Below are positions 5,965-41,663 of a DNA stretch of 62,672 nt, piece after piece (position 1 is the first letter of the stretch; each line of letters starts with the position of its first letter). The stretch spans positions 1 through 62,672 of the forward strand of contig CAZWBZ010000004.1 in assembly GCA_964632605.1 (NCBI GenBank). The letters run 5' to 3'. The position numbers and the translations under genes were made by a program. Source of the stretch: an uncultured Candidatus Saccharibacteria bacterium (GTDB lineage Bacteria; Patescibacteriota; Minisyncoccia; Phycocordibacterales; UBA9973). The notes below the pieces were generated by a model. That model did no database searches. It saw only the letters and a list, made by a program, of their open reading frames with translations, and had not been told where the DNA came from.

Positions 5965-5992
5965 AAAATCACTTGGTTAACCAAGTGATTTT
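5965..5992. terminator. Bidirectional hairpin between convergent genes
   Basis: aaaatcacttgg-ttaa-ccaagtgatttt is a perfect 12-bp stem flanked by A/T runs. It overlaps the last codons of the minus-strand gene. Confidence 0.6.
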
Positions 5993-6765
5993 ATTTTAAC
6001 TATTTTATTTTTTTGCTTGTCTATAATATTTAGTTTGATTGTCAGCATGCCGTCTTTTTCAAAAGCTTCTATTTTTTCAATATCGACTTCGTAAGGTAGG
6101 GGCAATGTCCTGGAAAATGTACCCCATTTTAATTCTGTATTTTTAGAAATAATATTTTCATTTATTTCTTTTTTAACCCGGGTACATTTTATAGTTGCAA
6201 ACTTTGTTGTGATTGATATAAAAACATCATCTATAATTGTTCCGGCAATATCTGCGTTTATTACGAGTTGCTCATTTTTTTTAAAGATATCCACAGGTAT
6301 CATTGAATCAACAGGCAAGGGGGTGTAGGAAGTCTCTTCTTCTCTTTCGTATTGAGCTAGGTGTTTTACATAATTTGTATCGCTGCTTTTCTCATCTTTT
6401 TGGGGTATGTCTATGACATCAAATGCATTTTTAAGCTTAAAATTTTGCAGCCATGCCTGGAATACAGGGGTGTCGGACGGGGAGATGTTGGATACAAGTT
6501 TTAGTATTTTACCCGAGTCCATTACGTCTGTAAGATAGAATTTGCCATCATTAGAGCGCATTTTCAGTTGGTTACAATCTGTAACCAACTCTGGATAACT
6601 ATTTTTTAAACGGTTTTTTAGAACCTTCCAGTAGTTGCGTGGGTCAGAGCTATTTGTAACCAAAGCTATGGTGTCTACCACAGAGAAGTACCATGTGCTG
6701 GAATTTTCATCCCATTGGCGGCGGATACTGCTATTTTCTATGGATTCGATGTCTAACTTCTTCAT
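5977..6765 (-). CDS. Bro-N-like DNA-binding domain fused to an Hsp20/alpha-crystallin domain
   Basis: The N-terminal half (IRRQWDENSSTWYFSVVD...QLKMRSNDGKFYLTDV...ISPSDTPVFQAWL) resembles Bro-N/DinD-type domains. The C-terminal half (PVDIFKKNEQLVINADIAG...WGTFSRTLPLPYEVDIEKIEAFEKDGMLTIKL) has the alpha-crystallin pattern. Confidence 0.65.
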   Translation of the reverse strand: MKKLDIESIENSSIRRQWDENSSTWYFSVVDTIALVTNSSDPRNYWKVLKNRLKNSYPELVTDCNQLKMRSNDGKFYLTDVMDSGKILKLVSNISPSDTPVFQAWLQNFKLKNAFDVIDIPQKDEKSSDTNYVKHLAQYEREEETSYTPLPVDSMIPVDIFKKNEQLVINADIAGTIIDDVFISITTKFATIKCTRVKKEINENIISKNTELKWGTFSRTLPLPYEVDIEKIEAFEKDGMLTIKLNIIDKQKNKIVKIKSLG

Positions 6766-6781
6766 AAGTTTGGTAGCTACA

Positions 6782-6805
6782 TTATATACTATATATAGTA
6801 TATAA
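6782..6805. promoter_or_regulatory. 24-bp perfect palindrome in the divergent promoter region
   Basis: ttatatactatatatagtatataa equals its own reverse complement. It lies 17 bp upstream of the minus-strand start (6765) and contains a TATAAT box reading toward that gene. Confidence 0.4.
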
Positions 6806-6948
6806 ATAACCTCATGCTGGTGGAAATTCTGTTGAGAAGTTTCAATTATGATAAAGATTTTAATCTATAGACAGTAGTAGTTTTGTATTTTATTTTTTGT
6901 TCTTATCTATATAAGTTTATTGCAGTATAAGTTATACTATATGTAGAT

Positions 6949-9900
6949 ATGATTTATTTTTTGAAAGAGTTTGTTATTAATAAGAAAATTGTTACTGTGG
7001 CAAAATTTTCCATTGTTTTTTTAATCTCTGGATTTTTCTTTTTTGGAAATATAAATTCTACTTTTGCAGCCGTTCGAACATGGACTGGTACAACTAGCGG
7101 CTCTTGGTCAGTGGCAAGTAACTGGGGAGGTACCGCACCGGTAACAGGAGACGATCTTGTTTTTCCTGGCGGAGCATCTAATCTCTCTAATACAAATGAC
7201 CTGACTGAAAATACAATTTTTAACTCTATCACTCTTTCTGGTAGCGGTTATACTTTGTCGGGTAATCCAATTATTTTGGGTGCAGGTTTAGCTGGTATTA
7301 CAGACAGCGCATCATCTGGTGGTAATACAATTGCGCTTAATATTCGTCTAGATAACGTTTCTCCTATTTTTCGCAATATCGTCGTTACTAATACTGCTGA
7401 GACTTTGACCATTAGCGGAAAAATTGCTGGTGTAGGAGGTATAGCAAAAGAAGGTACTGGTACACTAGTACTGTCCGGAGGAAATACCTTTGGAGGTATT
7501 TTGAAGATTAATGCGGGTGTTGTTAATGCAAGACATTCAACAGCACTTGGGACTATTGCTACTGGTACAGAAGTTGTTGGCGGCGCAGCTCTTGAATTGC
7601 AAGGGGATATTGATATTAGTTACGAAGCTTTAACTCTTCGCGGCTATGGGGTTGATAGTAATGGGGCGCTTCGTAATATTAGCGGCAGTAATACGTATCG
7701 CGGAGTTATCTCTTTGACATCAGCCGCTGGTACAGAGATATCGTCTGATTCCGGTACTTTAACTATTGCCGGGGGTACATCAGGAAGTGCACCTTTGGTT
7801 TTTGATGGGGCAGGGAATATGGTTTTTTCTACTACGCCGATTACTGGTACTGGAATAATTACAAAAAATGGTTCCGGGACTGTGACTTTTAATTTTCCAA
7901 ATACAAACACGGGGACTTTAACCATAAATGCTGGAACTATTTTATATGGTGTAAATAACGCAATTCTTTCTAGCGCGATTACTGTAACAGGGGGTACTTT
8001 AGATATTGCTAGTTATTCCGATATGGTTGGTACAGTAACACTGGGTACTCTTGACTTAGCAGCGGGTACAATAACTGGTACATCTGGTGTATTAACCAGT
8101 TCTACTTTTACAGTTTACAATGGAACCATCAGTGCTATCATTGCTGGAGACGGAGGAACTTTAACAAAGAGTACTGCTGGTACAGTGGTGTTAACAAGAG
8201 CAAACCAATACACTGGGGCTACAACTGTTAGTTTGGGTATATTGGAAATTCAGGATAGTTATGGTCTAGGAACAATCGACGGTATTACAACTGTTACCGC
8301 TGGGGCAACTTTGCAAATTGATGGGTCAGGTCTTTCTATTCCAGAATATATTACATTTTCTGGTACAGGGCATTTGTATACCGGAGCAATTAGAAATACT
8401 ACAGGAAACAATACGTTAACTGGGCTTCTTACTCTTGGCGCGGCGGCCTTGATTGAATCTGATTCCTCTACAACTTTAACTATTGACAGTAAAGGTATCT
8501 CTGCATCAACTCTTGGTCTTACTATCGGCGGAGCTGGTAATACTACCTTTACTTCATCTGCTCCTATTTATGGAACAAGCGCCACTTTAACAAAAGTTGA
8601 TGCAGGTACTCTTACGCTGCAGGCATTTAATAACTTTACAGGTGCAACAAACTTTACATATGGAGATGTTGTCTTAAGTGGTAGTGGCGCTATGCCATTG
8701 TCTACTGCGATGACTATTAGTGCGGGTGCAAGTTTGACTTTGGACAATACCAGCGCTACTAATATTGTTGACCGTCTTGCGGACGCTTTAGCGATTACGC
8801 TGAACGGGGGAGATTTTACTTTTGTTGGGTCAAACTCTATCGCGGTTGACGAAACTGTCGGCGTCTTAACTGCCGGTATTGCCACGCAGTCGGGGAATAG
8901 CAGGATAACGGTTACCCCCGGGTCTGGTGGGTCGACGACGATGCAGTTTGCATCCCTGACCCGCACTGCCGGAGCCTCTATTTTGTTTAGGGGTACTAAT
9001 TTGGGTTCGGACCCAGGAGCCGGGGTCTCCAATATACTCTTTACAACAGCGCCGACATTAACGGGTGGAACGGGCGCTGCTAATTCTGCAACTATTCCTA
9101 TTATCCAGGGCGCTTTTGGAGATAATTCTCCAACTGGTACCGGGACAGATATGGTTACATATGGTCGTGGAAATTCTAACGGGCTACGTTTACTAAACGG
9201 GGCAGGTTTCTCTGGTGAATATACAACTAACTTTGCTACAACTAACGCAAACATAAAATTAACTACAGCTACGGCGGCAGTTACGTCTTCAATTAACTCA
9301 CTGATTCTAGATGGAACCGCAAGTATTACTAACCCTGGTAGCGCGCAAGTTATCACACTGGCGTCAGGTAATATTTTAAACCTGGTTAGTGGTAATACTG
9401 TTGCTGGCGCTAACACTACTATTGCAGCGGGCGCTGTAGAAATAAATATCTTAGCTCCTGTTGATGTTGATATTTCTGCTTTGATTACAACTACTGGCGG
9501 ACTAACAAAAAGTGGAGCAGGCACATTAACTTTTTCTACTTCAAAAACTTATACAGGTCTTACATCTATTAACGAGGGAACACTTTTAGCAGGAACAAGT
9601 AATTTCGTTTCTTCTGGTAATATTACGGTAAATAACGCAACGCTAGACATCGCCGGTTTTAGTGATACTGTTGGCGCTGTAATATTGCAAACTGGAACTA
9701 TTACTGGGACAACTGGTATCCTTACAGGAACATCTTATTCTTTTAGAGAGGGAACAGTTAGCGCTATTCTTGGCGGCGCTGTTGCGTTAACGCGCGTTGC
9801 TACAAACACCGCCACGGATAGTGTTGTCTTGTTAACAAGAGAAAATACTTATACCGGGGCTACTACTATTACCAGCGGTATTCTAAGAATTGGAGCTGCT

Positions 9901-12900
9901 GGTAACGGTACTAATACACCACTGGGTACTACGGGCGGTATTACCACCGTTGCAAACCAAGGAGCTCTTGATTTAAATGGTTTTACTTTGTCTACGGCTG
10001 AATCTGTTTCTATTGCTAGTATTGGATTTGGACCTGGTACTAGTGTTGCTGCTGGTAACAGTAACATGGGCTCTATTATGAATACATCTGGTACGCCAGT
10101 TAGTTATAGTGGAGCAATTACACTAACTGCAGCTGCTCGTATAAATGCGGATTATGGAGCTCTTACAATAAGTGGCGGAATCTCTGGAGCTTTTGCTTTT
10201 ACCAGTGGAGGTTTTACTAATAGTACTTATACTGGCGTTTTGTCTACTATTACTACTTTGACCAAAGATGGTATCGGTGTTCTTACTTTATCAAACAGTA
10301 ACTCTTTTACTGGGACTACTACTATTAGTGCGGGGACAGTAAAACTTGGAACAGCTGGCGGCGCAACTAATACGCCATTGGGTACTACAGCTGCTGCTAC
10401 TATTGTGTCCGCAGGAGCGAGACTTGATTTAAATGGATTTACGCTGGGTGCTGCGGAGTCATTAACACTAAACGGTGTGGGTTATGGACTGGGGGACTTT
10501 GCAAGTGGAGCATTAATGAATAGCTCTGGATCTTCTGTTACTTATAGTGGGCTAATAACACTCGGTTCATCAGGAACTTTAATCAAGGTAGATTCTGGAA
10601 GTATTAGTTTAACTGCTGCTGGTACAATATCTGGAGCAACATTTGGTTTGATTTTAGGAGGTACTGGTACAGGGTCACTGGCTAGTATTATTGGTACCAC
10701 TACTGGTACTGTTACTAAGATTGGGACAGGGACTTGGACGCTGTCTGGAATTAGTACTTATACTGGAGCAACTGCTGTTAACAACGGAACATTAAAACTG
10801 GGTGCTAACAGTGCTGGCCCTACGAACTCTGTACTTGGTACTACTGGCGGTGCTACTACTGTTTATAGTGGCGGAGCATTGGACTTTAATGGATTTACTT
10901 TGGGTATTGCCGAAGGTGTAACCATAAACGGGCGTGGGGTTAATGACGGCGGAGCATTTATTGGAAGTAGTGGAACTTTCTCTGGAGCAATTACTCAAGC
11001 AACTGATTCTCGTATAGCTAATGCTTCTGGGACATTAACATTGTCTGCGGCAGTTGGCGGAGCATTTTCTTTGTATATTGGCGGCGCAGGGAATATTACA
11101 ACCAGTGCTGTTTTTGCGGCCAGTGCTCTTTCTATTACTAAACAAGGCGCGGGAACACTAACTGTAACAGGAGCAAATCTTTACACTGGTTATACTCGTG
11201 TGGATGCTGGAACTTTTGCTTATGCAGCAACTACTACTCTTGTTGCTACAAACCTTATAATGAACGGAGGTACCTTTAACAGTGGTGCCAACGCCGATGC
11301 TATCGGAACAGTTACTCTTATAGGAGGAACTATTACTAACTCGGCAGCATTAACTGGTACTTCTTATACGTTTGAGAGCGGTACAATTAGCGGAATCTTA
11401 GCCGGCGCAATTGCTGTTACGAAAAACACAAATAACACTGTTACTATGACAGGTGTTAATACTATTAGTAGTACTATTACTATTAATGCCGGAACACTAA
11501 CATTTAGCGGAGCAGGTACTGCTACTGCGGTCACAGGTGTTACTGTAAACTTGGGCGGAACACTAACGCTGGATAACTCTACGACAGCCAGCACCGACCG
11601 TCTTAATGGTACAGCTAACAACGTTACATTGGCGCTAAACGGTGGTAACTTTAACTTTATCGGTAACACTGCAGCAGCGGCTTCTGAAACAATGGGGGCG
11701 ATGACTGCTGCGTCTGGTCACAGCACTGTAACTATTACACCTGGAGCAGGGGGTAGTACTACTATGACATTTGCATCTTTTGCAAGAACTGCGGGGGCTA
11801 CTATTTTATTCCGCGGAACAAGCTTGGGTAGTACTGCTGCTGCCAATGTGTCTACACTTTTGTTTACAGCTGCGCCTACTTTAACTGGAGCTGCGGGTGC
11901 GGCAAACAGCGCAACAATTAGTGTTATCAAGGGTGCGTTTGGAGATAACTCTTTAAGCGGTACTGGAACTGACATGGTTACATATAACGTTGGTAACACT
12001 AACGGTATTAGAAGATTAAATGCTACAGGTTTTACAGGTGAATATTCTGCGGTATTAGCAGCTAACACTAATGTAAAATTAACAGCAGGTACTGCGGCTA
12101 GTACTGTTAGTATTAACTCGCTAATATTGAATGGTTTTGATATTACAAATCCTGGTAGTGCGGCTACTGTTACGATGGCGTCTGCATCTCTCTCTGGAAA
12201 TATTTTGATTAACTCTGCAAACAATATTGCAGGGGCGAATACTACAATTGGTATTACTACATTTGAGCTTGATATCCTGGCAACAGCTAACTCTACTGTT
12301 AGCGCCATAATAGGCACTGCTACTACTGGGTCTGTAGTATTAAGTGGTACGGGTAATGTAACACTGAGCGCTGCAAACTTGTACACTAGTACAACTTTTA
12401 TAAACAGCGCCACTCTTACAGCTGGAGCTAGTAATGTATTATCAAGTGGGGGCGTTACAATAGTAGGGGGTACATATAATCTTAATGGTAATTCTGATAC
12501 TGTTGGCGCTATTTCTATTAACGCTGGTACTATTACAACCGGTGCTGGTACGCTAACTGGTAATGGAACTTTTTCAACTGTTGCTAATAATAACGCGGCT
12601 TCAATAATAACAGGTAACTTGGGTCTTGGTGCTAACGCTACGTTTACTATTAACGACGGGCTAATGGATAATGATGCGCTTATAACTGCGGTCATAAGCG
12701 GCGCGTTTACTTTTGGTAAAGCGGGCGCTGGAGTATTGGAGTTAGCTGGCAGTAATACCTTTTCAGGTGTGACTACTATTAGTGCTGGGATACTAAGACT
12801 TGGGGCTACTGGTGACGCTACTAATACACCTCTTGGTACAGTTGCTGGTAGTACTAACGTTTCTACTGCATCAGCAGCCTTAGACTTAAATGGATTTACA

Positions 12901-15900
12901 TTAGGTACCGCTGAGCCTTTAACTTTAACTGGTAACTTAGCAACAGGAGCATTGCAGAATACATCATCTTCTTCTGTTAACTACAGTGGTCTTATCACTC
13001 TTGGCGCTGCTAGTACTATTATTTCCAACTATGGAGATATAAACATTACTAATACCGGTACTATTTCTGGAGCAACATTTGGTCTTACTATTGGGGGAGC
13101 CGGTAATGGAAGTTTGTCTAGTATACTTGGTACTACTAGTGGGACATTAACTAAAAACGGTTTGGGCGTCTGGACTGCTTCCGGGTTAAGTACTTATACA
13201 GGCGTAACTACTATTAGTGCGGGTACATTTAAATTGGGCGCTGCTGGTAGTGGTACCAATACACCGCTGGGTACAAGTGCGGGGGGTGTATCTATTACAA
13301 GTGGAGCAATTTTTGACCTAAACGGTTTTACATTAGGTACATCAGAAACCGCTACAATTAACGGAACGGGTATTGCATCTATTGGTGCATTTATAAATAG
13401 TTCTAACAATACTATTTCATACAACGGAGCTCTTACAATGGGTGCTGCATCTCGTATTGTAAACTATGGAACCGGAGTTTTGACTTTGACAGGGGCAATT
13501 ACTGGTAACTTTGCTTTAACAACAGTTGCGGTAGGCGGTATTACACAATCTACAGCTAGTGTTTGGTCTGGAACAGGTTCGCTTATAAAAGAAGGTTCGG
13601 GGACTTTAATACTTTCGGGTCAAAACAGTACTACTGGGGCAATGACTGTTTCTACTGGTAAATTACAGCTTGGGGCTAGTGGCGGGGCAGCTAATACACC
13701 GCTTGGTACAAATGCCGGAGGTGTTACTGTTGCTGCTGGAGCTGCGCTTGATTTTTCTACTTTTTCTTTGGGCGGCGCATCTACTTACGAAACATTGAAC
13801 GTCAGTGGTTCTGGTATTAGTAATACTGGGGCTTTAATCTTTGCGGCGTCTACTAACAATAACTTTGGCGCAATGACTGTTGCGGCCAATACCCGAATTA
13901 TAAACTCTGGTAGCGGAACTGTTATATTTGGTGGAGTCATAACTGCTGCTAACGGTATTAACTTGGCTATTAGGGGAACAGGTCCAACAAATATTAATGC
14001 AGCATTTGGCGCTACTGCTACAACTGCTACATTAACAAAATGGGACTCGGGCATACTGTCTATAAATGCGGTAAGCATTACCACGGGGTTAATTCGTGTT
14101 AATGGGGGAACTTTAAAATATGGTATTGCTGACGCACTGGCAACACCGGCTGTTACTGTTGCCGGCGGTACATGGGATTTGAATGGTTTCTCCGAAGGTG
14201 GTACTACTCTTATCGGAGCTGTAACATTAATTGGCGGATCTATTGTGAATACAGGTGGAGCAGCAACAATAACTTCATCAGCAACATATACAGTGGAAAG
14301 TGGAACAATTAGTGCAGTATTAGCAGGAGCTGCTATTGCTATGAACAAAAATACTGGGGGTACTGTAACATTGTCTGCTGCTAATACTTTTGCTGGACTA
14401 ACAACTATTAACGCGGGTACACTGGCTTGGGGGATTAACGATGCTCTTTCTTCCGGGGCTCTTACTGTAACAGGGGGTACTGCTAATTTAGGAACAAGTA
14501 CTGATACAGTCGGCGCTGTTACATTAACAAGCGGATTTATTAGCAGTAGCACTGGAGTATTAACAGGCACAGCTTATACATTTAGTAACAGTGGTACTGT
14601 CAGCGCAATTCTTGCCGGAAGTATAGGTCTAACAAAAACTGGTACAGGTACAGTGTCTTTGCTGGGTAGTAATACATACACCGGTACCACAACTATTACT
14701 GCTGGTGTACTAAGAGCAAATAGTACAACTGCTCTTGGAGATGGTAGTGCTACAAACACACTTGTTTTTAACGGAGGAACGCTAAGAGCTGGAGGAAACA
14801 TTTCTTCACCATCTGGTCGTGCTGTTACGCTAACGTCTACTGGTCTTATTGATACAAATAATTACACCGTAACACTTGCTGGTACAATAGGTTCTGCTTC
14901 TGGTATTACTAAAAATGGTATGGGTACATTAAGTACAACCGGGGCCGTAACATTAGGCGCAGCGTTAACTGTTAACAACGGTACATTTGACCAAGCTAGT
15001 TCTTTAAGTGGTCCAACTGCAGTTACTATTGCAACGTCTGGGGTTTGGTCTAATGTGGGTACAGGGGCGGTTACTCTTGCCGGCGCTGTTGTAAACTCTG
15101 GAGTAATAACTTTGAATTCAAACAATGGAACAACTTGTATCGATGGTCCTAATAGTATATTGGTTAGATCTAGTATTACTAATACACTAAGAGCTTGGTC
15201 TGGGACTGGTATATTTAATATGCAAAACCTGGATGTTGATGATATGACCGGGGCAGGTGTTACTGTATATAATTCTACTTTGTCAGGGGATACTACTTGG
15301 ACTGTAGGGTCTTGCGGAGTTACTGTATCTGGGTCTGCAAACGGTAATAATGCTGCAACTGTAAAACTTGCTATCAACGGTACACTGCAGGGTAGTAGTA
15401 CTACAATTAGTAGTAGTAGTTGGTCTTTGTCTAGTGGTTCAACTGTATCAGCCGGGGACATTATCACTGTTTGGGTGGATGGTGTAGCGGACAACTTGGA
15501 ATCAACCGCTGTCACCAAGTATGCATCAGGTAATATTACTGGAATGGTACTAGATACTAATGTATTAACAATTGGTAGTAACCAAAATACTAGTGTGTCT
15601 ACTACTAACCTTGCTCAATACGAAGCAACTGATGATGAAGATGTAATGCATACTTCTGTATCAGGCGCTCTACTTGTCCAAGGGGGAAGTAATTCTTATA
15701 CAGATGAAACATTATCTATTCTTGCATCTAATACATTAACTGTTAATAGCTCTTCTACTGAATCTATAACAACAGAGAAGATAACTAATGCAGGAACTAT
15801 TACTGCATCGGGGACTCCAACAATTAGTCTTGCTGGAACATCGGGGACACTGTTTACTAATACTGGTACATTTACTGCTGCTTCTAGTACTGTTGATTTA

Positions 15901-18900
15901 ACTGGTAACGGCAGCGCAACAATAGCATCTGGAACACCTACATTTTATAACTTAACTTCTTCAGGAACAGGTACAAAATCTTTGGGTGAAGCCCTAACTG
16001 TAACTAATATTCTTACAGTAGGGAACGGAACTTTGGATACAACAACTGCAAACGATTATACAATCAATGCGGGCAAAATAGACTTTGCTGGAACATCTAG
16101 TTCTGTAATGGGATACAACACTATCGCTGGTTCAAACACCGGAACTTATATTTCTGGTAATATGCTGGCGCAAAGATTTACAGCGTCATCTAGTGGAACA
16201 ATAAGTCAAATCAGTGTTTATCTTGTCGATACAGGACCTAATGTCTTTAAGGTTGCTGTATATTCTGATAATGCTGGTGCGCCAGATACACTGCTGGCAA
16301 CAAGCGCGGGTACAGGTAGCTCTACTACAACTCCGTCTTGGCAAACAGCAGCAATATCTCTTTCTGTCACCAGTGGAGTATCTTACTGGTTTGCTGTGCT
16401 TGGAGCTGGTAATCTAATCATGAATTACGATGTCGTTGGCAGCGGTAATAAAACAGCAGACGACGGTACAAATACTTATCCAACATTTAATGACCCATTT
16501 AATGTTTCTAATTATTACACTGGTACAACTGTTAGTATTTATGCAGATGTTACTGGTTCCAGTGGTGGTACGCTAAAGCTAAATGATTCAACTGTGAATG
16601 TTTCAGGAACAGGTACTGTGTTTGACGCAACAGGGGGGACAATGGACGTTTCTACTGGTACATCTACTATTAAACTAACTGACTCATCAAGTAGTTCTAA
16701 AACTTTTGCTGGAGCGGGTAAGACATATGACAATCTTTGGATTGCCCCAGGTTCTGCTACAGGTTCTTATACTATTTCTGGAGATAATACTTTCCTTGAT
16801 TTTAAAGATGACGGTACGGGGGCGCACGCTATTAACTTTACAGCGGGGTCTACTACTACAATTAGTACACTAACTTTGGATACAAATGCTACGCAGCTTA
16901 TAACACTGCAAAGTACAACTCCAACATCTTATTGGAATTTGGTTGATACTAGTGGTACAAATACTGTTTCTTATGTGTCTATTACAGATAGTTGTGCATC
17001 TGGCGGCGCAACTTGGGATGCTGGTAATGGTACAAATACAAATGGTGGGCATAACTGTGGATGGAGTTTTGTATCGGGTATTACTATTACTGGATCTGCA
17101 AATGGTAACAATACTGCAACTGTAAAGGTTGCTGTAAATGGGACTTTGAATGGTGCTACTACTACAATTGCTAGTAGCGCATGGACATTGTCTGGCGTCT
17201 CTGTAGCAAACAATGACATTATCACTGTTTGGGTGGATAACGTAGCAGACAACTTGGAATCTACTGCTGTAACTAAATACGGGGGATCAGGTAACATCAC
17301 TGGAATGGTCCTAAACACAAACGTATTAACTATTGGTAGTAACCAAAACAATAGCGTATCTACTACTAACCTTGCTCAATACGAAGCAACTGATGATGAA
17401 GATGTAATGCATACTTCTATATCAGGCGCCCTACTTGTACAAGGGGGAAGTAACTCTTACACAGATGAAACATTGTCTGTTCTTGCATCTAACACACTAA
17501 CCGTTAATAGCTCTTCTACTGAATCTATAACAACAGAGAAGATAATTAACGCAGGAACTATAACTGCTTCTGGGACACCATTGATTGAAGTTAATGGTAC
17601 TAGCGGTACTCTTTATACAAACACCGGAACATTTACTCCTGCGTCTTCTACTGTGAACTTTACAGGTAATGGCACCGCTACTTTGAATTCAGGAACTTCA
17701 TCTTTTTATAATCTAAAAGTTTCTGGTTCTGGTACTAAGACATTAGGTGCGGCTGTTACGGCAGCGAACAATCTAGAAGTTCAGACTGGAACATTAGATA
17801 CTAGTTCTGGCAGCAGTTATACTGTTACAGCTGGAAAGATAAATATTACAGGGGGAGCTGGCGGTACATTTGGAGAGACTAGTGTGCTTGGTAGTAGTAA
17901 TACAACAACAAAAATTATTACTACAAGATTCACCGCAACAGCTACTGGTGTTATTAATAAATTAACTGCCAGAGTTTTTGCTAGCAGCGGTACTGTAAAT
18001 ATGCGAGCAGCACTGTATAGCAAGGGAACAATTAACTCGCAAGATGGTCCTGTTAATTTGCTGACTAGTTCTCCTTATAGTGTTTCTTTGAGTATTACTG
18101 ACCAATGGCTGGAGATTCCTTTGAACGATTACACTGTTACAAATGGGGTAGATTATTATTTTGCTATTTGGGGTGATGCTACTTTTGGACTACATTACGA
18201 CTATAATGCAGGTACTTATGCTAATAGAAGCTATGAAGATAACGGTGGAACATTCCCAGCTTGGGTAAACCCAATAACATCTGGAAACGGTACACACTAT
18301 GACACTATTGGATCTTACTATGTAACATATGTTGGTGCTGGAACTTTGGTTGCTAACGGGTCTACTATTAACGTAACAGGTACATCCGGTACGCTGTTTA
18401 CCAAAGATTCATCTGGTACATTTACAGCAGGAACCAGTACTGTAAATCTAACAGGTAATGGTAGTGCTACTATAAATTCAGGAGATCCATCTTTCTATAA
18501 CTTAACTTCTTCAGGAACAGGTACAAAATCTCTTGGTGGCGCATTGACTGCGACAAATACGCTAACTGTGTCTGGCGGCACATTTGAGACAACTGGTAGT
18601 AATCATGCTTTGAACGCCGGTAAAATTGTTTTCAATAGTGGTACATTAAACCTAAACGCTTCAACAGTAAATCTTTCTGGAACTTCTGGCACGCTATTTA
18701 CTAAAACAAACGGTGTGCTTAATGCGGGAACCAGTACTGTAAATCTTAACGGTAACGGCAGCGCTACTGTTGCGTCTGGAGCTCCAAAGTTTTACAACCT
18801 AAATTCTTCAGGAACAGGTACAAAATCTTTAGGAGAGCTACTAGATATCGGAGGAACATTAACTGTGTCTAATGGAACATTTGATACTACGGGTAGTAAC

Positions 18901-20346
18901 TATGGAATAAATGCAGGCAAAATCGCAATGACTGGTACTGCTGGCGTATTGGGTTATCAAACAATAGGTACTGATCCGGGGTCTCCATTTTCTAGAAATT
19001 CGGGTACTTACGATTTCCAAGGAGGTCAATACGTTGCTCCTAATAATGGTACTGTTACTAGTATGAGTGCTTGGGTTAAATCAAATAGTGGATCTTCAAT
19101 GAATTTTAAATTCGGTATTCAGAGATTAGTTGGAACTGATTGGGTAAAGGTTGCTGAATCTAGTAGTGTTAGCGGAGGCGCAGGAGGAAGTCCTTCTTGG
19201 GTAACAGCATCAATATCAGCTTCTCTTATTTCTGGGGAAACCTACTTTATTCAGGTTATTGGAGATGCACCTTTTGGTTTCTATTATGATGGAGGCCTCG
19301 CTGCTTCTTATGTTCAGACAGACGGCGCTTATAGTTCTTTTGCTGTGCCGTCATCACAAACAGATTCTTGGTATTCTAGTAACTGGGGTTGGTATACTAA
19401 TTATGCTAATACTATTTATGCAGATTATGTTTACGGAGGTGGAACTTTGGCTGGTAATTCTTCTGTAATTAATTTAACAGGTACTGGTAATTTGTTTGAC
19501 TATCTTGCCGGTACAGTTTCTCTTTCATCGGCAACGGTTAAGCTTACCGACCAATCTTCTACTGCAAAAACCTTTAATGGTGCTGGTAAGACATTTGGAA
19601 CTCTTTGGATAAATGGATCTGGAACTGGAGAATATACTATCAATGGTTCAAACACATTTACAACATTCAAAGTAGATACTCCTCCTCATACAATTAAATT
19701 TACAGCAGGAACAACAACAACCGTTACAGATTTTGATGTAAATGGTAATGGGGCTGCATCTTTGGTTACACTAAAAAGTACAGTAGATACAAGTAGTTGG
19801 ACTTTGTCTAAAGCTACTGGAACATTGCGTAATTACTATCTTTCAATTAGAGACAGTATTGCCACTGGCGGCGCTACATTCTTGGCGCTAAATAGTACAA
19901 ATGTTTCTGGTAATACTGGATGGCAATTCTTTGAATTCAGTGTTGGCGGCGGCGGTAGCGTGGAATCTAGCGCTAATGTTGGAAGCTGTGCTGATGGTCA
20001 GCAAAACGGTGACGAAACCGGAGTCGACACAGGAGGACGCTGCAGCGGTGGCGGCGGAGCTGGCGGCGATACAACAGGAACTTGCGCTGATGGTATTCAA
20101 AACGGCGATGAGACTGGTACAGACACAGGAGGACGCTGCAGCGGCTATACAGGAACTTGCGCTGATGGTATTCAAAATGGTAACGAGACTGGTACAGACA
20201 CAGGAGGACGCTGCAGCGGCGGCGGCGGAGCTGGCGGCGGAGGAGGAGATCTTGGTTATATAAAAAATAACAGAACTTTTATGATTGCATCTGCCGCGCA
20301 GTTTAACATCTTGAACCTTTTTAAGTATCTATTGGCTTACATTTAG
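6949..20346 (+). CDS. Giant (4465 aa) secreted surface protein made of autotransporter-associated beta-strand (PATR-type) repeats, three beta-sandwich modules and a Cys-repeat C-terminus
   Basis: Single uninterrupted ORF. N-terminal signal-like hydrophobic segment ending TFA-AV. Dozens of G(T/A)GTLxLSGxNTYTGxTTIxxGTL units. No beta-barrel translocator at the C-terminus. TAG stop. Confidence 0.85.
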   Translation: MIYFLKEFVINKKIVTVAKFSIVFLISGFFFFGNINSTFAAVRTWTGTTSGSWSVASNWGGTAPVTGDDLVFPGGASNLSNTNDLTENTIFNSITLSGSGYTLSGNPIILGAGLAGITDSASSGGNTIALNIRLDNVSPIFRNIVVTNTAETLTISGKIAGVGGIAKEGTGTLVLSGGNTFGGILKINAGVVNARHSTALGTIATGTEVVGGAALELQGDIDISYEALTLRGYGVDSNGALRNISGSNTYRGVISLTSAAGTEISSDSGTLTIAGGTSGSAPLVFDGAGNMVFSTTPITGTGIITKNGSGTVTFNFPNTNTGTLTINAGTILYGVNNAILSSAITVTGGTLDIASYSDMVGTVTLGTLDLAAGTITGTSGVLTSSTFTVYNGTISAIIAGDGGTLTKSTAGTVVLTRANQYTGATTVSLGILEIQDSYGLGTIDGITTVTAGATLQIDGSGLSIPEYITFSGTGHLYTGAIRNTTGNNTLTGLLTLGAAALIESDSSTTLTIDSKGISASTLGLTIGGAGNTTFTSSAPIYGTSATLTKVDAGTLTLQAFNNFTGATNFTYGDVVLSGSGAMPLSTAMTISAGASLTLDNTSATNIVDRLADALAITLNGGDFTFVGSNSIAVDETVGVLTAGIATQSGNSRITVTPGSGGSTTMQFASLTRTAGASILFRGTNLGSDPGAGVSNILFTTAPTLTGGTGAANSATIPIIQGAFGDNSPTGTGTDMVTYGRGNSNGLRLLNGAGFSGEYTTNFATTNANIKLTTATAAVTSSINSLILDGTASITNPGSAQVITLASGNILNLVSGNTVAGANTTIAAGAVEINILAPVDVDISALITTTGGLTKSGAGTLTFSTSKTYTGLTSINEGTLLAGTSNFVSSGNITVNNATLDIAGFSDTVGAVILQTGTITGTTGILTGTSYSFREGTVSAILGGAVALTRVATNTATDSVVLLTRENTYTGATTITSGILRIGAAGNGTNTPLGTTGGITTVANQGALDLNGFTLSTAESVSIASIGFGPGTSVAAGNSNMGSIMNTSGTPVSYSGAITLTAAARINADYGALTISGGISGAFAFTSGGFTNSTYTGVLSTITTLTKDGIGVLTLSNSNSFTGTTTISAGTVKLGTAGGATNTPLGTTAAATIVSAGARLDLNGFTLGAAESLTLNGVGYGLGDFASGALMNSSGSSVTYSGLITLGSSGTLIKVDSGSISLTAAGTISGATFGLILGGTGTGSLASIIGTTTGTVTKIGTGTWTLSGISTYTGATAVNNGTLKLGANSAGPTNSVLGTTGGATTVYSGGALDFNGFTLGIAEGVTINGRGVNDGGAFIGSSGTFSGAITQATDSRIANASGTLTLSAAVGGAFSLYIGGAGNITTSAVFAASALSITKQGAGTLTVTGANLYTGYTRVDAGTFAYAATTTLVATNLIMNGGTFNSGANADAIGTVTLIGGTITNSAALTGTSYTFESGTISGILAGAIAVTKNTNNTVTMTGVNTISSTITINAGTLTFSGAGTATAVTGVTVNLGGTLTLDNSTTASTDRLNGTANNVTLALNGGNFNFIGNTAAAASETMGAMTAASGHSTVTITPGAGGSTTMTFASFARTAGATILFRGTSLGSTAAANVSTLLFTAAPTLTGAAGAANSATISVIKGAFGDNSLSGTGTDMVTYNVGNTNGIRRLNATGFTGEYSAVLAANTNVKLTAGTAASTVSINSLILNGFDITNPGSAATVTMASASLSGNILINSANNIAGANTTIGITTFELDILATANSTVSAIIGTATTGSVVLSGTGNVTLSAANLYTSTTFINSATLTAGASNVLSSGGVTIVGGTYNLNGNSDTVGAISINAGTITTGAGTLTGNGTFSTVANNNAASIITGNLGLGANATFTINDGLMDNDALITAVISGAFTFGKAGAGVLELAGSNTFSGVTTISAGILRLGATGDATNTPLGTVAGSTNVSTASAALDLNGFTLGTAEPLTLTGNLATGALQNTSSSSVNYSGLITLGAASTIISNYGDINITNTGTISGATFGLTIGGAGNGSLSSILGTTSGTLTKNGLGVWTASGLSTYTGVTTISAGTFKLGAAGSGTNTPLGTSAGGVSITSGAIFDLNGFTLGTSETATINGTGIASIGAFINSSNNTISYNGALTMGAASRIVNYGTGVLTLTGAITGNFALTTVAVGGITQSTASVWSGTGSLIKEGSGTLILSGQNSTTGAMTVSTGKLQLGASGGAANTPLGTNAGGVTVAAGAALDFSTFSLGGASTYETLNVSGSGISNTGALIFAASTNNNFGAMTVAANTRIINSGSGTVIFGGVITAANGINLAIRGTGPTNINAAFGATATTATLTKWDSGILSINAVSITTGLIRVNGGTLKYGIADALATPAVTVAGGTWDLNGFSEGGTTLIGAVTLIGGSIVNTGGAATITSSATYTVESGTISAVLAGAAIAMNKNTGGTVTLSAANTFAGLTTINAGTLAWGINDALSSGALTVTGGTANLGTSTDTVGAVTLTSGFISSSTGVLTGTAYTFSNSGTVSAILAGSIGLTKTGTGTVSLLGSNTYTGTTTITAGVLRANSTTALGDGSATNTLVFNGGTLRAGGNISSPSGRAVTLTSTGLIDTNNYTVTLAGTIGSASGITKNGMGTLSTTGAVTLGAALTVNNGTFDQASSLSGPTAVTIATSGVWSNVGTGAVTLAGAVVNSGVITLNSNNGTTCIDGPNSILVRSSITNTLRAWSGTGIFNMQNLDVDDMTGAGVTVYNSTLSGDTTWTVGSCGVTVSGSANGNNAATVKLAINGTLQGSSTTISSSSWSLSSGSTVSAGDIITVWVDGVADNLESTAVTKYASGNITGMVLDTNVLTIGSNQNTSVSTTNLAQYEATDDEDVMHTSVSGALLVQGGSNSYTDETLSILASNTLTVNSSSTESITTEKITNAGTITASGTPTISLAGTSGTLFTNTGTFTAASSTVDLTGNGSATIASGTPTFYNLTSSGTGTKSLGEALTVTNILTVGNGTLDTTTANDYTINAGKIDFAGTSSSVMGYNTIAGSNTGTYISGNMLAQRFTASSSGTISQISVYLVDTGPNVFKVAVYSDNAGAPDTLLATSAGTGSSTTTPSWQTAAISLSVTSGVSYWFAVLGAGNLIMNYDVVGSGNKTADDGTNTYPTFNDPFNVSNYYTGTTVSIYADVTGSSGGTLKLNDSTVNVSGTGTVFDATGGTMDVSTGTSTIKLTDSSSSSKTFAGAGKTYDNLWIAPGSATGSYTISGDNTFLDFKDDGTGAHAINFTAGSTTTISTLTLDTNATQLITLQSTTPTSYWNLVDTSGTNTVSYVSITDSCASGGATWDAGNGTNTNGGHNCGWSFVSGITITGSANGNNTATVKVAVNGTLNGATTTIASSAWTLSGVSVANNDIITVWVDNVADNLESTAVTKYGGSGNITGMVLNTNVLTIGSNQNNSVSTTNLAQYEATDDEDVMHTSISGALLVQGGSNSYTDETLSVLASNTLTVNSSSTESITTEKIINAGTITASGTPLIEVNGTSGTLYTNTGTFTPASSTVNFTGNGTATLNSGTSSFYNLKVSGSGTKTLGAAVTAANNLEVQTGTLDTSSGSSYTVTAGKINITGGAGGTFGETSVLGSSNTTTKIITTRFTATATGVINKLTARVFASSGTVNMRAALYSKGTINSQDGPVNLLTSSPYSVSLSITDQWLEIPLNDYTVTNGVDYYFAIWGDATFGLHYDYNAGTYANRSYEDNGGTFPAWVNPITSGNGTHYDTIGSYYVTYVGAGTLVANGSTINVTGTSGTLFTKDSSGTFTAGTSTVNLTGNGSATINSGDPSFYNLTSSGTGTKSLGGALTATNTLTVSGGTFETTGSNHALNAGKIVFNSGTLNLNASTVNLSGTSGTLFTKTNGVLNAGTSTVNLNGNGSATVASGAPKFYNLNSSGTGTKSLGELLDIGGTLTVSNGTFDTTGSNYGINAGKIAMTGTAGVLGYQTIGTDPGSPFSRNSGTYDFQGGQYVAPNNGTVTSMSAWVKSNSGSSMNFKFGIQRLVGTDWVKVAESSSVSGGAGGSPSWVTASISASLISGETYFIQVIGDAPFGFYYDGGLAASYVQTDGAYSSFAVPSSQTDSWYSSNWGWYTNYANTIYADYVYGGGTLAGNSSVINLTGTGNLFDYLAGTVSLSSATVKLTDQSSTAKTFNGAGKTFGTLWINGSGTGEYTINGSNTFTTFKVDTPPHTIKFTAGTTTTVTDFDVNGNGAASLVTLKSTVDTSSWTLSKATGTLRNYYLSIRDSIATGGATFLALNSTNVSGNTGWQFFEFSVGGGGSVESSANVGSCADGQQNGDETGVDTGGRCSGGGGAGGDTTGTCADGIQNGDETGTDTGGRCSGYTGTCADGIQNGNETGTDTGGRCSGGGGAGGGGGDLGYIKNNRTFMIASAAQFNILNLFKYLLAYI
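19987..20214 (+). repeat. Three 57-nt Cys-bracketed coding repeats (C-A-D-G-x-Q-N-G-x-E-T-G-x-D-T-G-G-R-C) with Gly-rich spacers
   Basis: Units at 19987-20043, 20083-20139 and 20158-20214; the last two are nearly identical in DNA. This is a locally GC-rich patch, which also opens the spurious overlapping ORFs at 19888-20263. Confidence 0.8.
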
Positions 20347-20367
20347 AATAAAGAACATTTTTTATTC

Positions 20368-20397
20368 TTGTCAATGGATTTTTGGGCAAAATATAAT
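20368..20397 (+). promoter_or_regulatory. Candidate sigma70-type promoter
   Basis: TTGTCA (20368-20373), 18-nt spacer, TATAAT (20392-20397), downstream of the giant gene's stop. Confidence 0.35.
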
Positions 20398-20473
20398 TGA
20401 TATTAAGGCTTATCTTATATATAATTAACAGACAAGAGTTAGGAGCTCTAGTTTTATAAGATATATATTTATT

Positions 20474-20878
20474 ATGGAAGAAACAAACGCACCAAAAAAG
20501 GGAATGAGTTCTAAGATTGCAATCGTTATAGCTGTATTGGCTATAGCTGCAGCAGGGTATTTTTACTACCAGCTTTACAAAATGAAGCAAGACCCTAATG
20601 CTCAGGCAAGAAAAGAAGTTGCAGAATTAGTAACAAAAGTTTCAAAACTAGCAGTTTTGCCAGAAGGTGAAACACCAACTGTAGCTACAGTATCTGATAC
20701 TGAAGCTTTGAAAGAACAAGCTTTCTTTAAAAATGCAAAACAAGGCGATAAGGTTTTGATTTATGCAGAAGCTAAAAAAGCTTTTCTTTACAGTGTAGAA
20801 CTAAACAAAATTCTTGAAGTAGCACCATTAAATATTGGTTCTCAAAATAGTACAACTACTACAACAAAAACTAACTAG
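20474..20878 (+). CDS. Small N-terminally membrane-anchored protein, function unknown
   Basis: ATG start, one TM helix (IAIVIAVLAIAAAGYFYY), Thr-rich tail, TAG stop. Confidence 0.5.
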   Translation: MEETNAPKKGMSSKIAIVIAVLAIAAAGYFYYQLYKMKQDPNAQARKEVAELVTKVSKLAVLPEGETPTVATVSDTEALKEQAFFKNAKQGDKVLIYAEAKKAFLYSVELNKILEVAPLNIGSQNSTTTTTKTN

Positions 20879-20910
20879 TACGTTAGCGTAAGCACGCACT
20901 TAATCCCATT

Positions 20911-22266
20911 ATGAGAAGATTTGCAAAAAGTATTTTAAGTATTTCAGCATCTCTAATTGTGATGGGGTTTTTGTTTTCTTATGCTTATGCTCAGTACACT
21001 ACTAGTACAAATTTCCAAATAGAAAATCCTATTGTTGGAACAATGGAAGGAGGTATTTCTACTTCATCTAGCTTTCAATATGTTTCTAGCTCCGGACAGC
21101 TTGAAAGTGGTCAGTCTAGTTCTAGCTCTTTTATGAAGAATGCTGGATTTCTTTATTTTCCAATTGCGACAACTCCAGTAGTTGCAACCACTGCTGGTAA
21201 TGGGGCAGTGCTTGTATCATGGTCTGCATCAGTTGGAACGCTGGGTAACGTAACTAGCTATGAAGTAGGCGTCGGGACTAACGCTTTAGGACCATTTACA
21301 TATACTAATGTTAGTAACGTATTATCAAGCAATGTTACATCTTTGACTAACGGGACAACTTACTACTTCAAAGTACGTTCTTATGTTTCAGGATTAATTG
21401 TTAGTGAATCTGCAGCTGTTAGTGGTACACCTACGGCTGGTACTGGTACTACTACTGGCGGCGGCGGAGGTGGTGGAGGAGGCGGAGGCGTAACTGCTGG
21501 CGCTGTAACTGGAACAACTACAAGTGGAGATACAGGAACCGGAGACGGGCGTATAACTTTTTCTGGTAGAGCTTATCCTAATTCCAAAGTTTCTATTTTA
21601 AAAGATGGTGTTTTAGTTGTAAGTACTATTGCTGACCCCAAGGCTGATTTCTCTGTCAGTATTGGAACTCTTGCTAGCGGTAACTATAATTTCTCTGTTT
21701 ATGGACAAGACAGTAATGAAAGAAAGTCCAACTCATTTTCTTTCCCGGTATTTATATCTCAAGGTTCTACTATAAATATCGGAGGAATATTTCTTTCTCC
21801 TACAATTGATGTAGATAAGAGCGAAGTTAAACAAGGAGAAAACGTTGTTATTTTTGGCCAAAGTGTACCAAGTAGTGATATTACTATTTCTGTTCATTCA
21901 GAAAAAGAAATTTTTAATAAAGTAAAAACAGATAGTTCTGGTGTTTATTTATTAAACTTTGATACAGCTCAGCTTGAGATTGGATCCCACCTTGCAAAGT
22001 CTAAATCTGCCGTAGAGACAGAAGTTAGTCCTTTTGGTAACACTGTTGCTTTCAAGGTAGGTAATGAATCCAAAAAGAAAGAGGTAAATACTTGTTCGTC
22101 TCTTCGTGGAGACCTTAACTGTGACAAGAAAGTAAACCTGGTAGACTTTTCTATAATGGCTTATTGGTATAAGAAAAATAATCCTCCATCAAATGTGGAT
22201 TTAAATAAAGATGGAATTATTAGTTTGGTAGACTTTTCTATAATGGCATTTAATTGGACTGGATAA
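20911..22266 (+). CDS. Secreted protein with an FN3 domain, poly-Gly linker, Ig-like region and a C-terminal dockerin-type repeat pair
   Basis: Signal peptide. FN3-like SWSA...YEV...YYFKVRS. An 11-Gly run at ~21463-21495. The C-terminus GDLNCDKKVNLVDFSIMAYW...DLNKDGIISLVDFSIMAFNW is a duplicated dockerin Ca-binding motif. Confidence 0.7.
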   Translation: MRRFAKSILSISASLIVMGFLFSYAYAQYTTSTNFQIENPIVGTMEGGISTSSSFQYVSSSGQLESGQSSSSSFMKNAGFLYFPIATTPVVATTAGNGAVLVSWSASVGTLGNVTSYEVGVGTNALGPFTYTNVSNVLSSNVTSLTNGTTYYFKVRSYVSGLIVSESAAVSGTPTAGTGTTTGGGGGGGGGGGVTAGAVTGTTTSGDTGTGDGRITFSGRAYPNSKVSILKDGVLVVSTIADPKADFSVSIGTLASGNYNFSVYGQDSNERKSNSFSFPVFISQGSTINIGGIFLSPTIDVDKSEVKQGENVVIFGQSVPSSDITISVHSEKEIFNKVKTDSSGVYLLNFDTAQLEIGSHLAKSKSAVETEVSPFGNTVAFKVGNESKKKEVNTCSSLRGDLNCDKKVNLVDFSIMAYWYKKNNPPSNVDLNKDGIISLVDFSIMAFNWTG

Positions 22267-22269
22267 TAT

Positions 22270-27096: not shown

Positions 27097-27170
27097 AGGG
27101 TTTATAAATTGCTTTTATTAAGATTGCTCGTAACAGTCTAAAAGCATTGTTTTTATTAATTCGTTTCATT

Positions 27171-30240: not shown

Positions 30241-30273
30241 AAGAGCCCCTTGCCAGACAGGCAGGGGGCTCTT
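30241..30273 (+). terminator. GC-rich 14-bp hairpin after the 27171-30227 gene
   Basis: aagagccccttgcc-agaca-ggcagggggctctt. It lacks a strong downstream T-run, so confidence is moderate. Confidence 0.5.
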
Positions 30274-30292
30274 GCTGTATGTAAATATTATG

Positions 30293-30301
30293 TGTTATAA
30301 T
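30293..30301 (+). promoter_or_regulatory. Extended -10 box (tgttataat) ending 6 nt before an in-frame GTG
   Basis: TGn+TATAAT at 30293-30301; GTG at 30308. The track's TTG (30272) lies inside the terminator hairpin, and the ATG (30290) lies immediately upstream of and abutting this -10 element. Confidence 0.4.
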
Positions 30302-30307
30302 ATTTTT

Positions 30308-41662: not shown

Positions 41663-41663
41663 T

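Follow-up and report, generated by a model that had tools for sequence, protein, structure and literature searches.

The window analyzed here is the whole 62,672-nucleotide (nt) stretch of contig CAZWBZ010000004.1, and the gene in question occupies positions 6949 to 20346 of its forward (+) strand. It encodes a predicted giant surface protein of 4,465 amino acids (aa) in one uninterrupted, ATG-initiated open reading frame (ORF) followed by a stop codon, just as an earlier note made from the DNA letters had read it. Residue numbers convert to window positions as nt = 6949 + 3(aa − 1). Thr, Gly, Ser, Ala, and Asn are abundant in the protein, and its 10 cysteines all lie past residue 2730. The earlier note had also described an N-terminal signal-like helix, interspersed modules, and a Cys-repeat tail, all of which were recovered: the strongest hydrophobic segment lies at the N terminus, the C-terminal 1,750 aa consist of duplicated supermodules that match no Pfam family, and three Cys-pair units precede the end. 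When the exact 4,465-aa product was looked up, no identical protein was found on record.

A Sec-type signal and a stalk of PATR repeats

Residues 1 to 40 (6949 to 7068, + strand) form a predicted signal peptide with a Lys-rich n-region, a hydrophobic core, and a TFA|A cleavage-type site. The segment from aa 8 to 35 is the most hydrophobic of the whole protein (Kyte-Doolittle value of 2.2) and is followed by TFA|AVRTW; residues 16 to 31 were helical in an AlphaFold model of aa 1 to 900. In all class A/B orthologues, the motif AxA|A[TVI][RK]TW is kept together with the basic n-region and the hydrophobic core, and it abuts the conserved N-cap described below. A tripartite n-h-c signal that obeys the AxA rule, with small residues at −3 and −1, is the classical pattern for Sec export and cleavage by signal peptidase I (SPase I). 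As judged from its sequence, the giant protein thus carries a signal of the Sec/SPase I type for which cleavage is predicted, and we infer that it would be exported through Sec and cut at TFA|A.

Behind the signal, an N-cap (RTWTG..W..NW) and a PATR beta-strand stalk span aa 41 to 2720 (7069 to 15108, + strand), as delimited by Pfam and NCBIfam matches, a self-trained hidden Markov model (HMM), AlphaFold, and the alignment of orthologues. A domain profile scan, set beforehand as a check, detected PATR: PF12951 was the only Pfam family in the protein (E = 4e-40; 135.9 bits against a cutoff of 27; 13 stretches), and TIGR02601 was the only NCBIfam family (E = 1e-50; 168.5 bits against 19.85; 13 stretches). 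TIGR02601 repeats are expected to recur every ~60 to 100 or more residues inside a longer beta-helical unit. The HMM trained on the giant protein itself found 31 units at an i-E value of ≤0.01; the strong PATR units that it found number ~20, lie between aa 165 and 2680 at a spacing of 90 to 145 aa, and are all located in the N-terminal 60% of the chain. On these profile matches, the giant protein is a member of the PATR/TIGR02601 beta-strand repeat family. The family assignment made earlier therefore stood well above the cutoffs, whereas the "dozens" of units then described came down to a count nearer ~20 canonical units. An old duplication is present within the stalk, where aa 514 to 1400 and aa 1444 to 2216 share about 60% identity.

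AlphaFold modeling of aa 1 to 900 from a 62-sequence alignment gave an unbroken run of short strands (mean pLDDT of 85; pTM of 0.75). When this model was compared with the PDB by the use of Foldseek, every neighbor was a right-handed beta-helix, yet all E values were ≥0.26 and none was significant. Foremost among these neighbors were the autotransporter passengers Ag43, EspC, EspP, Hbp, TibA, and IcsA; an adhesin of the two-partner secretion (TPS) type was also present. The short-strand model and its fold neighbors are consistent with a beta-helical stalk and do not prove one, because no Foldseek match to the model was significant.

A conserved stalk in 28 species-level relatives

Relatives were sought in one genome per GTDB species with an N-terminal alignment as the seed. 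Twenty-eight species or loci from the candidate phyla radiation (CPR) contained a relative, at 59 to 89% identity. The closest proteins and loci are labeled Patescibacteria group, "Candidatus Paceibacterota," Minisyncoccia, and Nomurabacteria, in agreement with the CPR origin that had been proposed; NCBI taxonomy places Minisyncoccia within the phylum Minisyncoccota. The comparison of lengths across relatives that had been suggested was run as well: complete orthologue ORFs encode 3,001 to 3,896 aa, and two incomplete ORFs exceed 4,235 and 4,493 aa.

Over the first ~2,700 aa, 18 orthologues are collinear with the giant protein as a single high-scoring segment pair, at 59 to 72% identity. Because of this collinearity, we regard the stalk with its internal duplication as old and conserved and the gene as no chimera of assembly. 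Two orthologues (L004 and L005) remain collinear with the giant protein to residue ~3030 and so span the junction between the stalk and the supermodules. At the DNA level, no repeats within the gene exceed 90% identity over 300 nt and exact long repeats are absent; thus, neither collapse nor chimerism is obvious.

C-terminal modules

The C-terminal 1,750 aa gave no Pfam match even at an E value of ≤1, and PDB sequence searches with both halves of this region and with a profile of its beta-sandwiches gave no match. A small Cys-bounded domain, C2730...C2789 (residues 2730 to 2790; 15136 to 15318, + strand), closes the stalk. Supermodule 1 (aa 2791 to 3374; 15319 to 17070, + strand) then combines an immunoglobulin (Ig)-like segment, PATR-like strand repeats, beta-sandwich 1 (16108 to 16551, + strand), and a cap ending in ..GGHNCGWSF. 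Supermodule 2 (aa 3378 to 4328; 17080 to 19932, + strand) is a copy of supermodule 1 that holds beta-sandwiches 2 (17869 to 18333, + strand) and 3 (18949 to 19431, + strand), two ~100-aa repeats, and a cap ending in ..GNTGWQF. Supermodules 1 and 2 share 82% identity across a 200-aa stretch (aa 2801 to 3000 versus aa 3388 to 3587). The three sandwich copies, of ~150 aa each, share about 30% mutual identity, and the caps follow the pattern ..GGN.GW.F. In an AlphaFold model of aa 3990 to 4465, the sandwich (pLDDT of 70 to 79) and the cap (pLDDT of 87 to 96) were folded, with disorder past residue 4333. The fold neighbors of the sandwich were jelly-roll, CBM6, PHR, and phage-fiber domains, matched over ~100 residues with a root mean square deviation of 3 to 4 Å; none had an E value of ≤1e-3. 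The sandwich and cap modules may bind ligands.

Three Cys-pair repeats of the form C-A-D-G-x-Q-N-G-x-E-T-G-x-D-T-G-G-R-C follow at aa 4345 to 4422 (19981 to 20214, + strand); no Pfam or NCBIfam model matched these copies. The family to which they belong (C.DGIQNG.ETG.DCGG.C) comprised 1,099 cluster representatives at an E value of ≤1e-3, often in tandem within single proteins (22 matched stretches in the protein P0146), and many carriers have C-terminal sequences that, by eye, resemble those of cargo of the type IX secretion system. The copies in the giant protein are without the inner cysteine (DTGGRC versus DCGG.C). The repeat is common in extracellular proteins and is not confined to the giant-protein system. 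We also considered whether the repeat travels with the tail described below and rejected the idea, as only the protein P0159 among the 150 best Cys-repeat proteins has the tail.

Beyond the stalk, the C termini of the orthologues are a mosaic. Cys-pair repeats follow the stalk in the giant protein and in L004, and "NGGSGY...P.V.F" repeats do so in eight loci, including L007, L010, and L014. Two orthologues (L011:8329-18216 and L012:9950-19837) instead have a Hint/intein-like domain (CFIAGT...VHN, recognized by eye), after which come only ~25 residues and a polyglycine (polyGly) end. Inspection by eye also revealed, in the C termini of L007 and L011, a Cys-containing cap segment after the stalk that resembles the C2730...C2789 domain. 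A divergent subgroup (L018 [6498-21324], L020, and L026) has ~800 extra N-terminal residues with Pro/Glu-rich linkers and no polyGly tail; the gene directly downstream encodes a secreted protein of 357 aa, and the C-terminal domains of the two (158 aa in the subgroup) share 52.5% identity. Beside the gene for that 357-aa protein lies one whose product has a subthreshold WxLIP_PGBD match (E = 0.0055), an arrangement that calls to mind the WxL clusters for cell-wall binding in Firmicutes.

An apparently portable C-terminal ending and an exchanged gene body

The giant protein ends with a polyGly run, SGGGGAGGGGG (aa 4423 to 4433; 20215 to 20247, + strand), and the tail DLGYIKNNRTFMIASAAQFNILNLFKYLLAYI (aa 4434 to 4465; 20248 to 20343, + strand), a candidate retention or sorting peptide. 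A polyGly C-terminal end was present in 14 of 17 complete orthologues. Nine orthologues have in common the fuller ending, namely polyGly, D[IL]G[FY][ILV][YF], basic residues, and then 20 to 35 weakly amphipathic, net-cationic residues. Apart from the giant protein, polyG-D[ILV]G[FY] was carried by L004, L006, L007, L010, L014, L015, L023, L030, P0002, P0159, and L046, and the same ending follows differing spacer repeats in different orthologues.

Two of these carriers extend the ending beyond the family. A DNA-pattern scan of metagenomes yielded L046 (contig OFRE01002124.1, 1-4212), a 1,271-aa protein of the same fiber type as the 1,548-aa protein encoded at 337 to 4983 of the window; it ends in GGGGGGGGDLGFLY followed by an IKRN... 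tail, shows no similarity to the giant protein, and shares only a 74-aa segment, at 61% identity, with that 1,548-aa fiber. P0159 is a 3,668-aa giant from locus L047 of a close relative (L047:7518-18524; JGI 3300050206, Ga0502761_0001967) with no PATR and no Pfam family. By BLAST, it resembles the giant protein only in its last ~320 aa, which comprise the cap, Cys repeats, polyGly, and tail, at 53% identity. The flanks of its slot nevertheless match those of the window: a 134-aa protein at 68%, a dockerin protein at 68%, a cohesin protein at 60%, and an ABC exporter at 84% identity. Because P0159 shares the slot, the flanks, and the C-terminal cassette alone, the gene body has evidently been exchanged while the cassette and flanks stayed. 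These sequence comparisons indicate that the locus behaves as a hot spot for exchange of the giant-gene body around a constant cassette and constant flanks. We argue indirectly, from the varied repeats that precede the ending, from its presence on L046, and from its retention in P0159 with an exchanged body, that the ending is a functional and portable cassette. The arrangement of supermodule, cap, Cys repeats, and tail is found independently in P0001, P0002, and P0159.

A profile search with an alignment of 11 tails returned one meaningless match, probably with polyGly words filling the candidate list; a scan of contigs from one genome per species, queried with nothing but the last 476 aa, returned no relative; and at an E value of ≤10, nothing relevant in NCBIfam matched any of six tails, the Cys repeats, or the GGSGY repeats. 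The idea that the tail is a dockerin half-site was rejected, as it gave no Dockerin_1 signal at an E value of ≤1.

Predicted export without a barrel and comparison with known systems

The absence of a C-terminal barrel, which the earlier note had treated as an anomaly, was borne out. No PF03797 barrel of the type Va autotransporters was found at an E value of <0.01 in the whole protein or at an E value of ≤1 in its C-terminal segments, and the last 130 aa were modeled as disordered. There was likewise no PF05860 TPS domain in the giant protein and no TpsB partner among the window ORFs scanned; the Omp85/TpsB/BamA-type, ShlB/POTRA-type, and sortase families had no match among those ORFs. The anomaly itself did not survive comparison. 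In the top 120 homologues of the first 900 aa (source labels Verrucomicrobiota, Planctomycetaceae, Gemmatimonadales, Actinobacteria/Actinomycetota, and CPR), PF03797 was present in 1 and PEP-CTERM (PF07589) in 5; C-terminal domains are undercounted in this set because many entries are partial and all are <1,600 aa. CPR orthologues already bear the PGAP name [quoted passage not shown] and giant CPR exoproteins without a barrel have been published. Going by these sequences, a PATR architecture without a barrel is not anomalous and is already known, and no outer-membrane barrel would be needed, because this type of organism probably has no outer membrane and the PATR family is mostly used without a barrel. 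In a monoderm cell, an unfolded chain reaches the outside without anything beyond Sec. Export, formerly listed as unexplained, is thus no puzzle, because the conserved Sec/SPase I signal would suffice in such a cell; for anchoring, listed alongside it, the C-terminal cassette is now a concrete candidate.

The non-CPR matches include PATR proteins of Verrucomicrobiota, Planctomycetota, and other phyla, which belong to the same repeat family and share 31 to 50% identity with the giant protein over hundreds of residues. The same N-cap pattern (TW.G....W....NW) opens their alignment consensus, the alignment also spans the non-PATR segment of the giant protein at aa ~560 to 830, and they have a signal peptide but, for the most part, no barrel. 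They often end in PEP-CTERM (the 62-sequence consensus ends VPEP...RR), whereas in the giant protein the end is made up of Cys-pair repeats, polyGly, and a D-L-G-Y tail. The giant protein is 3 to 4 times longer than the non-CPR matches listed and has 1,600 aa of modules that they lack. It contains no PEP motif and no match to PF07589 or to any NCBIfam sorting domain, in contrast to cargo of the PEP-CTERM/exosortase system.

Type Va passengers (Ag43, EspP, Hbp, IcsA, and TibA) are like the giant protein in their Sec signal and in a short-strand architecture with PATR units, which in the giant protein is consistent with a long right-handed beta-helix. They differ in having a C-terminal 12-stranded barrel and an outer membrane to cross, which the giant protein probably does not face, and the Foldseek likeness to them had E values of ≥0.26. 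In Gram-positive LPXTG fibrillar adhesins, a wall-spanning region is followed by a C-terminal anchor. Like the giant protein, these adhesins have a stalk that is long and repetitive and, near the C terminus, a Gly-rich spacer of low complexity, and the monoderm setting and Sec export presumed for the giant protein would be theirs as well; they differ in having LPXTG, a hydrophobic helix, and a basic tail, and their stalk consists of tandem Ig-like domains whereas that of the giant protein appears beta-helical. LP.[TSA]G occurs nowhere in the giant protein, which also has no C-terminal hydrophobic helix with a basic tail and is thereby set apart from sortase substrates.

Giant proteins of comparable size have been described in CPR and elsewhere. 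FhaB (COG3210)-domain proteins of 4,939 and 6,025 aa are known from Patescibacterium danicum and other Patescibacteria (PMC11809585), and their architectural homologues, recovered by domain architecture, have a downstream autotransporter beta-domain (PMC11809585). The same study counted 149 Patescibacteria proteins of >4,000 aa and proposed roles in adhesion, with rapid domain shuffling, for the FhaB-type giants (PMC11809585). By description, these are like the giant protein in exceeding 4,000 aa, in their CPR origin, and in their large-exoprotein adhesion domains; no full-length homologues of them were found across Patescibacteria (PMC11809585), in contrast to the 28 species-level relatives and collinear stalk found here. 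In Omnitrophota, a different phylum, giants are dominated by PF12951 in up to 38 copies (bioRxiv 10.64898/2026.06.07.730766); these resemble the giant protein, by repeat content, in being very long and rich in PF12951. What is new here is the distribution over 28 species, the conserved locus, the mosaic C termini, the body swap in L047, and a tail that matches no known sorting signal.

A probable adhesin with probable retention at the envelope

Taken together, the data make it probable that the gene encodes a giant fibrous cell-surface protein, most probably an adhesin, of a Patescibacteria (Paceibacteria/Minisyncoccia-type) cell, one that is exported by Sec and probably held by its C-terminal cassette. 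The unfolded chain would pass through Sec and lose its 40-aa signal peptide at TFA|A. Outside the cell, aa 41 to 2720 would fold by themselves into a long stalk, most likely as a right-handed beta-helix with about 20 units of the PATR type, and the last 1,750 aa would supply species-variable supermodules (Ig-like segment, strand repeats, jelly-roll-like sandwich, and cap) for ligand binding. Retention at the envelope would fall to the cassette, in which the cap is followed by Cys-pair repeats as a spacer, by polyGly, and by a short tail that is cationic and aromatic; products of genes downstream, either the 134-aa membrane protein or the cohesin-like proteins with their membrane anchors, may take part. 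We favor a role in adhesion because of this architecture and because a cultivated Patescibacterium cannot grow as an epibiont without envelope proteins that bear dockerin-, fn3-, and lectin-like domains (PMC10633639).

Such a role matters in that CPR/Patescibacteria live attached, and how they recognize and hold their hosts is little understood beyond a few cultivated Saccharibacteria. A constant stalk with a mosaic, swappable remainder looks like a diversifying organelle of host contact, and the locus recurs in 28 species-level genomes with a fiber, an enzyme resembling penicillin-binding proteins (PBPs), the giant protein, a small membrane protein, a dockerin protein, and membrane-anchored cohesin-like proteins. 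Of all this, the polyGly tail alone could point to an anchoring mode that is new for a monoderm envelope. Tentatively, and as a proposal that we ourselves hold to be rather less than probable, the series of cap, spacer repeats, polyGly, D[ILV]G[FY][ILV]x, basic residues, and ~25-aa tail may be a new retention or sorting signal of Patescibacteria that is read by products of neighboring genes and defines a plug-in slot for recombined giant fiber bodies. Its partner could be the 134-aa membrane protein; a more speculative choice is the membrane-bound PBP/beta-lactamase-like enzyme, which might treat the C-terminal Gly-Gly as a mimic of D-Ala-D-Ala and so couple the giant protein to peptidoglycan. 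If so, orthologues that stop just past polyGly would resemble the processed form.

Several observations weigh against an adhesin held by its C terminus. Five orthologues end 2 to 4 residues past polyGly, without the tail, and three terminate in a quite different domain; the tail therefore cannot be a universal anchor. It is not like a membrane helix (Kyte-Doolittle maximum of 1.23, with ≤1.14 on 18-residue windows across all tails), it has no match to any described sorting signal, and it was found on one protein per locus only. The variable region adjoins the proposed anchor, whereas variable regions are usually the distal, ligand-binding end. The fold-library matches of both models were all above an E value of 1e-3, and the synteny with the neighboring genes may merely reflect genome relatedness. 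Alternatively, the protein might be released rather than anchored, as a soluble or loosely bound exoprotein or part of a sheath or S-layer-like matrix whose tail is a flexible end or a remnant of folding or processing; the absence of a membrane helix or known sorting motif, the five entirely tail-less orthologues, and the disorder of the last 130 aa in the AlphaFold model all speak for this. We nonetheless think release unlikely, since polyG-D[ILV]G[FY] is kept across orthologues with differing preceding repeats, since the tail also occurs on two unrelated giant/fiber proteins (P0159 and L046), and since the cassette stays when the whole gene body is replaced in the same locus. The position of the variable modules would in turn suit the usual logic of adhesins if the signal were an uncleaved anchor, with the conserved stalk proximal to the cell and the C-terminal modules forming a distal, host-binding tip. 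The sole strongly hydrophobic segment is indeed N-terminal, and class C orthologues have ~800 extra residues, with Pro/Glu-rich, linker-like stretches, right after it. Such an N-terminal anchor leaves the conservation of the cassette under body swap unexplained, and AxA|A abutting the conserved N-cap in all class A/B orthologues is the pattern of SPase I, so we consider it decidedly improbable. The related idea that class C orthologues are anchored N-terminally, in a manner complementary to the tail, was weakened by a TEA|E site after their hydrophobic segment, because of which they may be cleaved too.

Two further possibilities concern the gene model and the secretion route. Repeat number or the stalk/supermodule junction might be chimeric or collapsed, given supermodules that are 82% identical in protein and up to 90% identical over 300 nt, many related genes that are interrupted by contig ends or N runs, an exact product not on record elsewhere, and an fusA gene in the same window that looks interrupted. 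The lack of exact long repeats, the collinearity of L004 and L005 to aa ~3030 across that junction, the arrangement of supermodule, cap, Cys repeats, and tail seen independently in P0001, P0002, and P0159, and the ORFs of >4,235 and >4,493 aa in two other assemblies make even a partial artifact of this kind very unlikely. More improbable still, to the point that we give it hardly any credence, is a genuine type V passenger, either a classical autotransporter or a two-partner exoprotein, with its translocator encoded elsewhere and an outer membrane present. The strongest family matches are PATR, the fold neighbors are autotransporter passengers and a TPS adhesin, and some related loci are labeled "Gammaproteobacteria." These labels, however, come from automated third-party records, and the loci are 59 to 63% identical to the CPR gene; the relatives and flanking genes are those of Patescibacteria. 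Neither PF03797 nor PF05860 occurs in the giant protein, and no Omp85/TpsB-type domain occurs among the window ORFs scanned. CPR cells are monoderm in published cryo-electron microscopy, which also counts against a type V system.

Conserved neighborhood and other genes of the window

Surface proteins dominate the neighborhood of the giant gene, and the gene order there is kept in about 20 loci. Upstream lie a gene for a 1,548-aa fiber with a Peptidase_S74 (endosialidase chaperone) domain and a Pro/Glu-rich tail (337 to 4983, + strand), which is a member of the conserved locus, and one for a membrane-anchored Beta-lactamase2/Peptidase_S11-like protein (5008 to 5961, + strand), which is conserved upstream of the giant gene. 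Between these and the giant gene, a 262-aa HSP20-domain protein is conserved on the opposite strand (5977 to 6765, − strand); its HSP20 domain occupies the C-terminal 100 aa behind a long N-terminal extension with no assigned domain, and it is kept in about 15 species.

Directly downstream, a gene at 20474 to 20878 (+ strand) encodes the 134-aa protein with one N-terminal membrane helix. It has no significant Pfam family and is 45 to 68% identical in about 14 loci (L002, L004, L006 to L008, L010 to L012, L014, L015, L022, L023, L025, L030, and L047). A pairing of polymorphic toxin and immunity gene was considered here and rejected: the 134-aa gene is conserved while the C termini vary, and the C-terminal modules are structural repeats. 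Next come a secreted protein with fn3, Big_6, and Dockerin_1 domains (20911 to 22266, + strand), syntenic in many loci, and three syntenic paralogous genes (22270 to 23145, 23126 to 24022, and 24022 to 25308, + strand) whose products each combine a cohesin or cohesin-like domain with a signal peptide and a membrane helix at the C terminus. The giant protein itself has no dockerin (PF00404) or cohesin (PF00963) module; both are present in these genes directly downstream. The region from 20911 to 25308, with its dockerin protein and three membrane-anchored cohesin(-like) proteins, recalls a cohesin-dockerin scaffold, on a small scale, within a CPR genome, and a literature search on cohesin/dockerin in Parcubacteria returned no papers. 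An ABC exporter is a further downstream neighbor.

More secreted proteins are encoded at 27147 to 30227 (InlB B-repeat, Ig-like, and PG_binding_1 domains), 30272 to 31339 (a CAP/SCP-domain membrane protein), and 35473 to 38622 (a 1,049-aa NHL-repeat propeller with He_PIG and PG_binding_1 domains). It had been estimated that over 40% of the first 38 kb encodes extracellular protein, and the four genes named in that estimate proved to cover 62%.

The window is chromosomal and contains thyA, folA, glyA, rpsL, fusA, nusG, rplK, a ribonucleotide reductase gene, and a PilM-type gene. At 49829 to 51970, fusA (encoding EF-G) specifies only 551 aa with a truncated domain IV and has overlapping ORFs at 51279 to 51692 and 51539 to 51970; this interruption may stem from a frameshift or from an error of local assembly and, as such, bears on the quality of the window sequence. 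At 39371 to 42050, the PilM-type gene is followed by small ORFs without a Pfam match that may be PilN/PilO-like, which suggests a cluster for type IV pilus assembly about 19 kb downstream of the giant gene.

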